Positions 1-20,936 of a stretch of DNA of 64,000 bases are shown piece by piece. A program made the position numbers and the translations under genes. Position 1 is the first letter of the stretch; each line of letters starts with the position of its first letter. The notes below the pieces were generated by a model. It ran no database searches. It saw nothing but the letters and a program-made list of their open reading frames with translations, and was not told the origin of the DNA. Where the stretch lies: the sequence record PZ583738.1; one strand, written 5' to 3'. The stretch comes from a phage.

Positions 1-99
1 GTTTACATATTGGTTGAGTATCTCTGACGAGTTTGTATTGTCATACCCGGTCCCGTCTTCAAGCCGGGCGAATAAGCTTGCATCATAAGAATTACGCAT
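1..99 (-). CDS. 14: probable neck protein gp14, N-terminal fragment (truncated by window edge)
   Basis: Minus-strand ATG at 99 opens a frame that runs off the window edge; location after gene 13 matches T4 order 13-14; assignment by synteny only. Confidence 0.3.
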   Translation of the reverse strand, partial: MRNSYDASLFARLEDGTGYDNTNSSEILNQYVN

Positions 100-727
100 A
101 ATTCCATAATTTCCATTTTTCGGCTGTACTTTTACATCTGTAAATGACCGCAGCCGGAGTTATTGAATAATATTCTGCACATTTTCTTCCGGTACAAAAT
201 TCTAGGTCGCCAGTAATAATTTTACGTGCCGCCGGATTTTTATCATCAGAAAAATCAGGATGTCGGTCCTTAAAATCAATCCACATTCGCGCCGTTGACT
301 CTTTACGACGTTTTAATCCTTCTTCGGACCATTCTCTTTGTTTTGCGGCTTCCGACATTCGTTTTCTTGATTCAGCTGTTCTCTTTTTACCAAAAGCAGG
401 AGAATCTTCTGGACGACTATAACCTTCTGGACCACCTCCCCCTGTTGGATGTAAATTTGCACAATTATCAAAACTTTCTAAAAGTTCACTAACTAGTAAA
501 GCTTCGGCTTCCTTTAATAGAGCAGGTGATTCAAAAGGTTTAGACCAGGTAATATCGACTAAACATTTTCTTCCATATTTTTGTTTAGCTCGTTTAACAA
601 TAGTACCCGACCCAAAATAACTATCCGCTTTAAAATCTTCATATGGCGAATGACGTTTACCGCCATACACCATTACCCCACCAGATGTTTCAAATGTCGA
701 CACATAAAGTCTATAATAAGTAGCCAT
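92..727 (-). CDS. GIY-YIG family homing endonuclease (Seg-like)
   Basis: 211 aa; N-terminal YRLYV..VMVYGGKR and YFGSGT motifs typical of GIY-YIG; basic NUMOD-like stretches (KRTAESRKRMSEA, GLKRRKEST); paralogous to ORF 14387-15064; inserted between genes 13 and 14. Confidence 0.6.
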   Translation of the reverse strand: MATYYRLYVSTFETSGGVMVYGGKRHSPYEDFKADSYFGSGTIVKRAKQKYGRKCLVDITWSKPFESPALLKEAEALLVSELLESFDNCANLHPTGGGGPEGYSRPEDSPAFGKKRTAESRKRMSEAAKQREWSEEGLKRRKESTARMWIDFKDRHPDFSDDKNPAARKIITGDLEFCTGRKCAEYYSITPAAVIYRCKSTAEKWKLWNYA

Positions 728-1665
728 TAGCCCACCAATATAGGAGTCGGTGCATCCAGCAGGTCAAGTTCTTCACGAAGACGTTCTTTTTCCATACGAG
801 CTTCTTCAATTAAACGAACACCATCAACTGTGACGCCACCTGGCATCATCATTCCCTGGTGTTTAGCTAATACGTTGCCATTAACTTCCTTAACGAGCGC
901 CGTGGCATAGTCTTTCACCCAACGGTTGTTGTATGCACCATCTTGAAGTCCAAGGTCCTCACCTGCTCTCATGCCGCTTATTCTGCGCGCCGGGTTATCC
1001 CACTGTGCACCAGCATTCCATGGATTATCACAATCGGCCGAAGCAAAACCATAGCCAGCTGTATTGCCTACCATTGAATCCACACCGTTATATGATTTGG
1101 TATAAACTTCAATTACAATCACATCTCCCTGACGGAAGTTGCCCATAATTTTAAGTTGTTCAGTATCGTCATTATACCAGTAATCTGGCAGCGGAACCAT
1201 CAGGTCTTGCATCATTGAACGGTATTGCATAAGCTGTGTAAAATAACCAAGGTCTGCACCAAAAGCATTTGGTCCAAAGCTGTTACATGAGCTACCCATT
1301 CCACCGTTAATCCCAGCAAGTCCCAGAACAAAATCTGTGAACCACGGATATGTGGCTTGCCCGTCCATCGAAGTTAATGAACCGACGTTAGTACGAATAA
1401 TCTGCGTTACTGCAAAAATATTACGGCCTTTTAAATCGAAAACACCATCGCGGAATTTCTGCTGTGAAACTTCATCATGGCCAATATAAAAAGCCTGATA
1501 ACCTTTGTTATAACCATTATAGTGATATTCGCCATATAATTCTAATGCGCGCTGGATGCAATCATAAACCTGTTCGGTCGTAACTTCGATATTCGTGATT
1601 GGCGCACCAAGACGACGAAGGATTGCATCTTTTAATTGTTTCGGGTTGTATGATTCAGTTGCCAT
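727..1665 (-). CDS. 13: neck protein gp13
   Basis: 312 aa, ATG at 1665 with SD (AGAGGAAAA); size and position after wac match T4 gp13 (about 309 aa). Confidence 0.8.
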
Positions 1666-1683
1666 ATGTTTTCCTCTTTACTG

Positions 1684-1691
1684 TATTTATA
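1684..1691 (-). promoter_or_regulatory. T4-type late promoter (TATAAATA) for gene 13
   Basis: Plus-strand tatttata = TATAAATA on minus strand, about 19 nt upstream of gene 13 ATG. Confidence 0.5.
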
Positions 1692-1693
1692 CG

Positions 1694-1715
1694 AAAAAAG
1701 GGCCGAAGCCCTTTT
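1694..1715 (-). terminator. rho-independent terminator after wac (UUCG tetraloop hairpin + U-run)
   Basis: Minus-strand RNA aaaagggc-uucg-gcccuuuuuucg immediately after wac stop. Confidence 0.6.
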
Positions 1716-1716
1716 A

Positions 1717-18227: not shown

Positions 18228-18239
18228 AAAGCCTCCATT

Positions 18240-18247
18240 TATAAATA
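18240..18247 (+). promoter_or_regulatory. T4-type late promoter (TATAAATA) for gene 4
   Basis: Exact TATAAATA 29 nt upstream of gene 4 ATG in the 53/4 divergent intergenic region. Confidence 0.45.
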
Positions 18248-18275
18248 AGTATATCAATATTTATTAGGAGGCTAT

Positions 18276-18728
18276 ATGGCATACTCCGGGAAGTGGCAGC
18301 CAAAAAACGTTGCCAAGTACAAAGGAGACTGGAAGAAAATCACATACAGGTCAAATTGGGAAAAATTTGTATTTAATTGGTTAGATAATCATCCAGATGT
18401 GATACAATGGGGCTCTGAGACCGTAATTATTCCATATTTCAGTAATGCGGATGGTAAAAAACGCAGATATTACATGGATATGTGGGTGAAATTCTCAAAT
18501 GGACAACAGTTTTTCTTTGAGGTCAAACCCAAAAAGGAAACAAGGCCGCCAGCAAAACCAGTCAATACGACCGCTGCAAGTAAGAAGAGGTTTATGAACG
18601 AAATGTACACTTGGGCCGTTAACAAGGATAAGTGGAAAGCAGCGCAGGCCGTAGCCGATAAAATGGGCATCCAGTTTAGATTGATTACTGAAGATGCGCT
18701 TAGAAAAATGGGATATAAGGGTTTATAA
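18276..18728 (+). CDS. 4: head completion protein gp4
   Basis: 150 aa; MAYSGKWQPKNVAKYKGD..RSNWEKF resembles T4 gp4 (150 aa); SD AGGAGG. Confidence 0.85.
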   Translation: MAYSGKWQPKNVAKYKGDWKKITYRSNWEKFVFNWLDNHPDVIQWGSETVIIPYFSNADGKKRRYYMDMWVKFSNGQQFFFEVKPKKETRPPAKPVNTTAASKKRFMNEMYTWAVNKDKWKAAQAVADKMGIQFRLITEDALRKMGYKGL

Positions 18729-19456
18729 TGTACGATTGTTCAGATTTTAACATCACAAATGGCGAGATAGTGGGACAAGGCGATTTTAATAAATCAAAAA
18801 CTTTGATATTTGTAAAGTGCTTTATATGTGAAGAAACATGCAAATACAAAGCAACTGTTTTAAAGCATAAGTTAAAAACAAAAAGTTGGTGTTCTAATTG
18901 TAATTTAAAACGTTCTTATGGTGAAAGCAAATTAATATCTGAATTAGATGCAATCACAAGAATAAATTCCGTGAATCCATTGTATAGTTTTGATAAATGG
19001 GATACCACATATTCAACTTTTACAAAATCAAAAGCCTATATAAAGTGTTCTACATGTTCAACCAGTTGGATTACAAATCTAAACAACTTTACAACAAAAA
19101 ACAAAGGATGTCCAAACTGTTGTCACAAAGGATTTAACGCAAAGAAACCTGCTATTGTTTATGTTAATAAAATAGAATATCCGGGCGGAACTGCTTTAAA
19201 GTATGGTATAACTTCCAATCATGATTTTAGATTGTGGCAGCAAAATCATTTTTCCAAATGCATTAGTTCCAAATTATATTATCGAGAATTTGAACTGGGT
19301 GCACAAGCCAAAATGTTAGAATCCGCAATATCTGTATTATATATAAAAGACAGAGGTTATTTGAATAAAGATATTATGGTCGATGGCTATACAGAAACCT
19401 TACCATACTATTTAAAAAATGATTTGATTAATTTTATAGAAGGATGGAAAGGATGA
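18728..19456 (+). CDS. cysteine-rich putative nuclease (zinc-finger N-terminus, GIY-YIG-like C-terminus); possible homing endonuclease
   Basis: 242 aa; four CxxC pairs ([21 protein letters not shown]) then AIVYVNKI..(11)..KYGITS..R..E arrangement reminiscent of GIY-YIG; sits between genes 4 and 2. Confidence 0.35.
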
Positions 19457-20280
19457 GTATTTTTACATTTATCAATGAATCTGCAGATAAACCAGGTCCG
19501 AAACCCAGTAAATCAGAACAACAATGGGTTGAAATAGGGGTTGAATTTTATACAGCAAAAGAAAAGGGAATGACCTCGAAGAAGTTTGCTGAAGAGAAAG
19601 GAATCAACTATTCGACCTTTACCAAAAGCATGTCAAGATATCATTCGAGAATTCAGACTGCTTATAAAGTATCCAAGCTCAAAAAGAAACCTGCCGGTAA
19701 ACTTACGAAGGCTGAACGTCAGCTGATAATGGTGAATAGCTTTAGAAAGAGCATAAGAGATAAGATTGCTAACGAAGGCGCTGCAAGCAACACCAAATCT
19801 GCCAGATGGTTCGCTGAGACAATTAAGAAATCGGTTCGGGGCCACGTAACGGCTAAACCTCAACCGGGTAAGATTTATGCTTATATCTATGATGCAAAGC
19901 ATAAGGATACTCTTCCGTACTGGGACAAATATCCGTTAATCATTTATCTTGGGCTAGGTAAGCACAATTTGATGTATGGTTTGAACTTGCACTATATTCC
20001 ACCGAAGGCACGTCAAGAGTTCCTTGAGGAACTTCTTAAGCAATATGCCAATACTCCTACGATTACGAACAAGACTCATCTGAAGATTGATTGGTCAAAA
20101 GTGAAGGGATTTAAAGGGGCTGACCAGATGATTAAAGCATATATACCTGGCAATATAAAAGGTACTATCACTGAAATCAAGCCCAGCGACTGGGCAAATG
20201 TGGTATTACTCCCCCTTCAGCAGTTTTTTTCAAAAGGCAAAAGATTTTCTTCACAGAAAGTATGGAGAAATTCACTTTGA
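19453..20280 (+). CDS. 2: DNA end protector protein gp2
   Basis: 275 aa from ATG 19453 (ATGA overlap with upstream stop); size and position match T4 gp2 (about 274 aa). Confidence 0.75.
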
Positions 20281-20936
20281 ATTATCAGTTTATATATTCA
20301 TCGTTAATTGAAAGGGCCCGTAACAGGGTCCTGATTTCATATAAAGAATCTCATCACATCATTCCGAAATGTATGGGTGGTTCAAATGCTCCGGATAACT
20401 TAGTCGATTTGACTCCCGAGGAACATTATGTAGCCCATCAACTATTGGTTAAAATATATCCTACAAATCCAGGTTTAAGTTTTGCTGCCACATCTATGAG
20501 TCAGTCAAGCAAGTATTTGAAACGCAATAATAAATTATTTGGCTGGTTAAGACGCAGACACGCTGACAATATTTCTAAAAGCCAAACCGGTAAAGTTTAC
20601 TTTAATAATGGTGTCAAATCGATAAAACTATTTCCATGGGAAGATGTTCCGGATGGGTTTGTCAAAGGAAGACATTACAGCCCAACCAAGGGTACAAAAC
20701 ATTCTCGCAATAATGGACATTTTAAAAATAAAGAGATTCAGGACGAATTGAGAAAGCGCCGGTGGGAAAAAGATAGGCAAGAAATGTGTAAAAACTTCGG
20801 AGTTGATACCATCGAGCAAGCTCGAGAGTTGGTCCTAGCATATAAAAAGGAATTGCATCCTCGATACTGGGTAAAGCCAATGTTGGAACGTTATCCGTTT
20901 ATGACTAAGCTAAGACTTAACACATTAATAAAATAA
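20262..20936 (+). CDS. HNH family homing endonuclease
   Basis: 224 aa; [30 protein letters not shown] is a canonical HNH motif; inserted between genes 2 and 3. Confidence 0.75.

Follow-up and report, generated by a model that had tools for sequence, protein, structure and literature searches.

The six inserted genes and their neighbours

The 64,000-nt stretch of phage DNA analysed here (sequence record PZ583738.1; 'the window' throughout, at its full length) is a Gaprivervirus (T4-like coliphage) genome segment, with vB_EcoM_RZ as its best megablast match (97.3% identity over 94%, positions 1-21700), followed by P479, VR26, P8 and others. We consider it probable (at roughly 0.85) that the window holds six free-standing homing endonuclease genes, four of them within the virion gene cluster that runs from gene 13 to gene 3, which have spread by homing. 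A scan of the window found no group I intron and no Rfam family other than two tRNA genes (adjacent tRNA-Met (CAT) and tRNA-Arg (TCT) genes at 26004-26156), and all six inserts are thus free-standing and not intron-encoded.

Two of the inserts lie on the minus strand. The first (ORF 92; 92-727, 211 aa; phrog_314, E 8.6e-30) is a SegC-like GIY-YIG gene, labelled segC or homing endonuclease in SP18, VR26, RZ and P8. It separates gene 13 (head-tail adaptor, 727-1665, minus strand, named after the relatives' annotation) from the 5' end of gene 14 (1-99, minus strand), which starts at position 99 (MRNSY...) and runs off the window. The second (ORF 14387; 14387-15064, 225 aa; phrog_314, E 1.9e-42) is a Seg-type GIY-YIG gene placed between gene 5.4 (gp5.4/PAAR, 15061-15354, minus strand, Pfam PAAR) and gene 6 (12441-14387, minus strand); it occurs at >95% identity in only 4 phage records, including VR26, where it is annotated 'segA'.

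The two other cluster inserts are encoded on the plus strand. ORF 18728 (18728-19456, 242 aa; phrog_681 'endonuclease', E 2.5e-29) is a T5orf172-type gene (GIY-YIG superfamily) with two CxxC...CxxC zinc fingers, lodged between a divergent 'type A' allele of gene 4 (head completion, 18276-18728, plus strand, Pfam TnsA-like) and gene 2 (DNA end protector, 19453-20280, plus strand), whose ribosome-binding site and start are situated inside the 3' end of the cassette. The start of gene 2 is most likely 19453 (MSIFTF...) and not the mechanically called 19444 (MERMSIF...), because relatives start there and its ATGA overlaps the stop codon of ORF 18728. ORF 20262 (20262-20936, 224 aa; phrog_655, E 2.4e-56) is a Mob-type HNH gene between gene 2 and gene 3 (tail completion, 21022-21621, plus strand, identified by Pfam Phage_T4_gp19 and the relatives' annotation), with homologs in P479 (99.6% identity), UPEC07 (97.8%) and VR7 (87.6%, annotated MobB-like).

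The remaining two genes are found on the plus strand of the early region. ORF 52860 (52860-53540, 226 aa, GTG start; phrog_655, E 3.5e-28) is a second Mob-type HNH gene, located between 49.3-like and 49.1-like genes and present at >95% identity in only 3 records; it is annotated as a putative homing endonuclease in DK-13, and the same 49.1/49.3 position holds a MobE-like gene in VR7. ORF 33377 (33377-34027, 216 aa; phrog_374 'HNH endonuclease', E 1.2e-59) is a mobile ORF composed of a CxC...CxC zinc ribbon, a central HNH_3-like module devoid of the catalytic His and a C-terminal AP2 domain, with homologs at >=95% identity in 5 records. All six ORFs had been named in a first-pass annotation made from the letters alone, and the ORF list, together with the annotation of relatives, places each of them where it had put them. 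Its reading of homing endonuclease genes scattered amid a conserved late/structural cluster agrees with the PHROG families and with the polymorphism described below.

The genes that surround the inserts were identified by Pfam (TnsA-like gp4, PAAR gp5.4, gp19-like gp3) and by the annotation of relatives with 92-97% identity. The minus strand (92-18257) carries, in order, the insert at 92-727, gp13, wac, gp12, gp11, gp10, gp9, gp8, gp7, gp6, the insert at 14387-15064, gp5.4 (PAAR), gp5.1-like, gp5 and gp53, and the plus strand (from 18276) carries gp4, the insert at 18728-19456, gp2, the insert at 20262-20936, gp3 and gp1. Within this cluster, the wac/gp12 boundary (3251-3750) is 87-88% identical to RZ and VR26 and 98-100% identical to P479, P8 and UPEC07, the reverse of what neighbouring segments display (i.e. 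local mosaicism), and the length of wac varies among relatives (1578-2169 nt). In Shigella phage SP18 a 687-aa ORF of unknown function (phrog_5296; 15829-17892 in the SP18 segment) replaces gp5.1/gp5.4 (PAAR) between gp5 and gp6. In the early region, a 234-bp segment (46829-47062) is unique to the window; in its place the opposite strand of DK-13 encodes a 248-aa ORF (17145-17891, plus, in the DK-13 segment) assigned to 'tail needle knob' (phrog_1030, E 2.8e-67), an odd match for this part of the genome. Furthermore, ~2.4 kb (54878-57276) covering ORFs 54878-56695 and 56692-57162 is absent from VR7; the DK-13 counterparts of these two ORFs are annotated as the large and small subunits of anaerobic ribonucleotide reductase.

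Domain architecture and retained core residues

All six ORFs matched homing endonuclease or endonuclease families in PHROGs, and for five of the six the nuclease family was backed by domain and fold searches, the evidence on which the first-pass annotation had staked its reading. ORF 14387 is alone among the window copies in passing the Pfam cut-offs for GIY-YIG (GIY-YIG 24.3 bits, cut-off 22.6; SegE_GIY-YIG 27.6 bits, cut-off 25), and the GIY-YIG gene proposed for the 5.4/6 junction is thereby confirmed. The one proposed for the 13/14 junction was recognised by transitive homology: Pfam yielded a sub-threshold NUMOD3 and nothing else for ORF 92, and its GIY-YIG domain was assigned through phrog_314 and a BLASTP match to ORF 14387. 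As the two proteins are 27% identical (E 5e-8), calling them 'paralogous', as had been done, is acceptable in a loose sense. In an alignment of five Seg sequences three columns are invariant (Y9, E70 and N86) and a basic residue (K or R) precedes A43; both Seg-type ORFs of the window retain the invariant Tyr, Glu and Asn.

The HNH gene reported between genes 2 and 3 was recovered in phrog_655 and by its motif: residues 27-59 of ORF 20262 form an HH...N...H arrangement that aligns with the HNH motif of McrA, with a Pfam HNH score (16.3 bits) below the cut-off of 21.4. Over this motif ORF 20262 is 40% identical to ORF 52860 (E 1.8e-5), which, together with its own phrog_655 match, points to the further HNH gene proposed there; Pfam matched nothing relevant in ORFs 52860 and 33377.

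The cysteine-rich ORF with a GIY-YIG-like C-terminus that had been noticed at the 4/2 junction belongs to a large family, visible only by exhaustive HMMER search: a word-indexed protein search with ORF 18728 returned just 2 homologs, and the exhaustive one 1,097 cluster representatives at E <= 0.001. In an alignment of 29 members, two CxxC...W...CPxC zinc fingers (residues 31-58 and 107-131 of ORF 18728, as CxxC...CxxC) precede a domain in which Y145, K158, G160, R168, E198, G220, E223 and T224 are invariant; these residues form a GIY-like strand, a 'KYGIT' motif, an Arg, a Glu and a 'DGYTET' motif. ORF 18728 retains all the family-invariant core residues (Y145, R168, E198, DGYTET). Searched member by member, the family matched DUF4379 (treble-clef zinc finger) in 24/29, CapR in 20/29, MUG113 in 15/29, T5orf172 in 8/29 and GIY-YIG in 5/29. 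The window copy falls below the Pfam cut-offs (DUF4379 20.8 bits vs 24.5), and a homolog with 69% identity (P0002) scores 30.6 bits for CapR (cut-off 24.2), 27.2 for DUF4379 (24.5) and 19.5 for T5orf172 (20). ORF 18728 combines a C-terminal T5orf172/MUG113 domain, N-terminal fingers of the CapR/DUF723/DUF4379 type and a polymorphic site beside essential genes, the features typical of T5orf172-family genes. Its architecture had been described as unusual, a view we dropped because zinc fingers of the CapR, DUF723 or DUF4379 type, frequently in repeats, are encoded by 87% of the homing endonuclease genes in the T5orf172 family (Barth, Dunham & Seed 2023, PMC10448857). T4 itself is without T5orf172 genes (PMC10448857), which makes ORF 18728 a less common find for a T4-like phage; distant homologs of ORF 18728 were detected in RB49, Phi1, JSE and RB16.

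For ORF 33377 the proposal of an AP2-domain, endonuclease-like gene stands in part: the AP2 DNA-binding domain is present, its fold confirmed, and the match to phrog_374 holds, but the HNH catalytic His is missing. At the position where an HNH_3-positive homolog (P0229) reads 'DHKD', ORF 33377 reads 'NRIN'. The family is widely labelled 'HNH endonuclease' though its catalytic motif is not evident. ORF 33377 may spread in the manner of a homing endonuclease gene without the canonical HNH His, either through a different active site or by being mobilised in trans by another endonuclease. MobE mobilises the defunct I-TevIII in trans.

Presence, absence and linked flanking sequence in relatives

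We compared the window with the same region in a panel of eight relatives (RZ, P479, VR26, P8, UPEC07, SP18, VR7 and DK-13), and counted as linked differences those alignment columns in which all carriers have one base and all non-carriers another. The four structural-cluster inserts are clean indels, the set of carriers is different at each junction, and no panel relative has all four together; the polymorphism that the first-pass annotation had proposed looking for in related phages is thus encountered at every junction. Empty sites measure ~0-10 bp, as opposed to 638-729 bp in the window, which gives inserts of ~631 bp (13/14), 665 bp (5.4/6), 731 bp (4/2) and 659 bp (2/3). Among ~44 related records, homologs with >=95% identity were present in 9 (ORF 92), 4 (ORF 14387), 4 (ORF 18728) and 7 (ORF 20262), and all ORFs are uninterrupted in every carrier examined. 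In a 51-kb comparison with DK-13, the 5.4/6 gene, the 2/3 gene and ORF 33377 account for the three longest segments that the window alone has. The other window-specific segments (186-466 bp vs DK-13) were considered as missed endonuclease genes and rejected, the two ORFs scanned in them matching PHROGs of unknown function. Beyond the genus, homologs of the 13/14 and 2/3 genes (49-61% identity) occupy the same junctions in distant genera, in which many genomes are empty.

At the 13/14 junction (carriers RZ, VR26, P8 and SP18; non-carriers P479, UPEC07 and VR7) all 12 fixed differences between carriers and non-carriers in a 3.2-kb alignment fall within the 89 nt of gene 14 beside the insert, and none elsewhere; over this tract the window is 96-97% identical to carriers vs 84-87% to non-carriers. 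At the 5.4/6 junction, where empty alleles have 10 bp and VR26 is the sole panel carrier, 12 of the 15 fixed differences found over 4.4 kb (window and VR26 vs non-carriers) are clustered at 15055-15085 (minus strand), a short variant tract at the 3' end of gene 5.4, of which columns 15055-15062 touch the junction and could reflect edge effects of the alignment. Across the baseplate genes RZ and P479 match the window at 98-100% identity, but neither has the 5.4/6 gene, which the window has in common with the more distant VR26 alone.

The most extensive linkage was observed at the 4/2 junction. The insert is carried by RZ, DK-13 (100% aa identity), fPSFA and MHG19 and is absent from ~25 related records; within the panel, VR26, UPEC07, VR7 and SP18 have no 4/2 insert of any kind, and P479 and P8 (as well as PSD2001) have a different gene there, of the Seg type (phrog_314). 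Gene 4 of the window is 99.5% identical to that of RZ/DK-13, ~90% to that of P479/P8 (with the Seg-type neighbour) and 72-73% to the empty alleles (VR26, UPEC07, VR7 and SP18), in surroundings where genes are 90-100% identical. Its span (18295-18710) contains 45 fixed carrier/non-carrier differences, and the other ~3.5 kb contains none. Moreover, gene 4 of the window has no megablast-level match in any of the ~25 records without an insert, in which homology to the window restarts only at 19441; the divergent allele was therefore encountered only beside an endonuclease gene. The 69% homolog of ORF 18728 at 4/2 in Yersinia phage MHG19 stands between flanking genes that are only 67-69% identical to the window, and this cassette has a perfect 17-nt direct repeat, GGATGGAAAGGATAATG, on either side (at 2965-3030 and 3690-3760 in the MHG19 segment), which could permit its precise loss.

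The 2/3 insert is carried by P479, UPEC07 and VR7 and missing from RZ, VR26, P8, SP18 and DK-13. Further genes of the same families were recovered at other places of the cluster in two relatives: P479 has Seg-type genes (phrog_314) between gp5 and gp53 (17745-18380, minus, in the P479 segment) and at 4/2 (19483-20130, plus), and UPEC07 has a Mob-type HNH gene (phrog_655) between gp53 and gene 4 (18412-19119, plus, in the UPEC07 segment). With the 5/53 and 53/4 positions added, at least six junctions of the cluster are occupied in the genus as a whole.

The inserts are fitted to their neighbours with precision, in that the start and stop codons of the cassettes overlap those of the adjoining genes and the essential gene downstream of each cassette takes a substitute start or ribosome-binding site from it. 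The start of ORF 92 overlaps the gp13 stop (TAATG) and reuses MATY, the first four gene 14 codons of empty alleles, and its 3' end provides the new gene 14 start (the ATG at 99, with an 8-nt overlap). ORF 14387 overlaps the gp5.4 stop (ATGA) and the gp6 start (TAATG), with an AGGA 10 nt upstream of the gp6 ATG. The last residues of ORF 18728, GWKG*, are those with which gp4 ends in empty alleles, and the cassette keeps the gene 2 upstream sequence and the ATGA overlap. The 2/3 insert is placed directly before the gp2 stop codon, its start ATG lying within the last 19 nt of gp2 and being present in empty alleles too.

Probable homing, competing explanations and known systems

No late promoter (TATAAATA) of its own was found upstream of any cassette. 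The exact T4 late-promoter consensus, TATAAATA, is located upstream of gene 13 (1684-1691, minus strand) and upstream of gene 4 (18240-18247); the motif occurs 7 times in the window, not above chance (mean 5.2), so that these late-promoter assignments rest on position. This arrangement agrees with the 'promoter-less cassette' mode reported for segC and the mob genes of T4 (PMC2988022). By analogy with the characterised T4 Seg and Mob enzymes a common mechanism appears likely, in which we infer endonuclease activity, the positions of cleavage and homing itself. A cassette of ~0.65-0.73 kb, sited exactly at a gene boundary and devoid of a promoter, would be transcribed from the late transcript of the host operon and coupled in translation to its neighbours; in a cell co-infected by a cassette-free relative, the encoded endonuclease would cut the empty allele near the junction, and double-strand-break repair would copy the cassette and adjacent markers from the carrier genome. 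The endonuclease gene would thus spread and flanking sequence would be carried along. Endonuclease-driven gene conversion with co-conversion of flanks has been described for T4 (PMC2988022), and the linked differences around three of the inserts are consistent with what such conversion would leave, without being proof of it.

Several observations weigh against this interpretation. The window copies of ORFs 92, 18728, 20262, 33377 and 52860 are below Pfam thresholds, and the family of ORF 33377 has no invariant His that could serve as the general base of an HNH motif. ORF 14387 has a Lys before A43, where 2 of the 4 aligned homologs have an Arg. The catalytic residues of the Seg-type ORFs are assigned from the five-sequence alignment, because no sequence alignment to a solved GIY-YIG structure was obtained (searches of the PDB with ORF 14387 and with the five-sequence Seg profile matched no GIY-YIG structure, and so gave no residue correspondence with I-TevI). 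The panel comprises eight relatives, and the 5.4/6 site has two carriers in all. At the 2/3 insert the flanks are essentially identical and hold no linked differences, which leaves the indel as the only evidence there. Lastly, the literature searched contained no biochemical or genetic evidence of cleavage or homing for these proteins.

For the 4/2 junction in particular, a more elaborate scenario may be entertained as a tentative and rather improbable extension, as unrelated genes of the T5orf172 and Seg types both adjoin a divergent gene 4 allele that was never found without such a gene. The junction would be a contested homing hot-spot, at which one endonuclease gene after another would be accompanied by, and make renewed use of, a cleavage-resistant version of the essential gene. 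Equally tentative, and separate from this, is the idea that ORF 33377 possesses another active site or is mobilised in trans.

Competition or defence could alternatively be the main selected role of these genes, with homing as a by-product: the nucleases would cut co-infecting relatives (marker exclusion), cut satellites or amplify anti-defence loci. Such roles have precedent, in that T4 endonucleases exclude T2 markers (PMC2988022), and two further papers report a role of SegB in evading bacterial immunity and an ICP1 nuclease that acts against phage satellites (PMC13096335, PMC8263062). Nothing in the window speaks to this explanation, the inserts flank structural genes and not anti-defence loci, and, being compatible with homing, it is not an alternative to it; we regard it as improbable as the principal explanation.

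Slightly less plausible still is the view that the cassettes are degenerate or domesticated relatives of endonucleases, with DNA-binding or regulatory functions or none at all, that are kept by linkage and not by active homing. CapR, a domesticated T5orf172 relative, has the zinc-finger domain of the ORF 18728 family, ORF 33377 lacks the invariant catalytic His, and the GIY-YIG motif of ORF 92 is degenerate and goes undetected by Pfam. Against this, the core residues of ORF 18728 are complete, the Seg-type ORFs preserve the invariant columns of their alignment, the reading frames are intact in the carriers, and the tight clusters of linked substitutions beside the inserts are the expected product of repeated gene conversion.

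Least likely by our estimate is that the genes are ancestral to the genus and that precise deletions in some lineages, and not homing insertions, produced the polymorphism, for although the direct repeat of MHG19 could mediate precise excision and homing endonuclease genes are known to pass through a stage of loss in their life cycle, the carrier sets differ per cassette and disagree with flanking similarity (the 5.4/6 gene being shared with distant VR26), unrelated genes occupy one junction, and the homologs in distant genera stand amid many empty genomes. Taken together, the retained core residues, the incongruent carrier sets, the unrelated genes at one junction and the linked substitutions clustered beside the inserts do not favour any of these three explanations, and spread by homing is the reading we prefer.

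The finding is an ordinary one, since these genes are a well-known feature of T4-like phages and are already annotated (RZ, VR26, VR7, SP18, P8 and DK-13 label them homing endonuclease, SegC, SegA or MobB-like); Seg and Mob genes between essential genes are textbook material, and it matters little beyond correct annotation. It has descriptive value as a natural example of flanking sequence that travels with endonuclease genes (the first 89 nt of gene 14, and gene 4 replaced whole, the latter 72-73% identical to empty alleles in genomes otherwise >90% identical), and it puts on record that the T4-like lineage has an endonuclease gene of the T5orf172 type. Furthermore, the linked tracts predict where cleavage sites may be sought, and could be of use for following recombination in Gapriverviruses.

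With respect to known systems, the GIY-YIG structure-specific nucleases SLX1 and At-HIGLE show similarity at the level of fold only (16-19% sequence identity), and SLX1 differs by a C-terminal RING/PHD finger and by acting with SLX4 on branched DNA. ORF 33377 has the zinc-ribbon, central module and AP2 order of P0229, a representative of the phage HNH_3 + AP2 endonucleases (Pfam HNH_3 and AP2), but the catalytic His is missing across its family and Pfam HNH models are unmatched. ORF 18728 resembles the T5orf172-family homing endonucleases of ICP1, T5-like and other phages in its N-terminal CapR/DUF4379-type fingers, its C-terminal T5orf172/MUG113 domain and its place next to essential genes (it is 36% identical to a phage T5 ORF over 142 residues); it differs in being hosted by a T4-like phage, a group treated as lacking the family in PMC10448857, and in having a window copy below Pfam cut-offs. 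The satellite repressor CapR has a related zinc finger, but ORF 18728, unlike CapR, keeps a nuclease domain. The two HNH ORFs are like the free-standing T4 Mob endonucleases (MobA-E) in their putative N-terminal HNH motif, their length (~225 aa) and their position between essential genes, with a VR7 homolog annotated MobB-like and ~48% identity to a T4 sequence over 102 residues; their sites (2/3 and 49.1/49.3) are different, their C-terminal regions are unrelated to the T4 proteins and neither reaches the Pfam HNH cut-off. The two Seg-type ORFs are only 27-45% identical to T4 proteins over the catalytic domain, 13/14 is not the T4 segC site, and the motif of ORF 92 is too degenerate for the Pfam GIY-YIG model. 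In other respects they are close to the Seg genes (SegA-G of T4; the SegC-like genes of Phi1, SP18 and VR26), with which they share an N-terminal GIY-YIG domain, a length of ~210-225 aa, an intergenic and promoter-less position in late operons, presence/absence polymorphism and linked flanking markers, and their 96-99% identical copies in relatives are annotated 'segC' and 'segA'.

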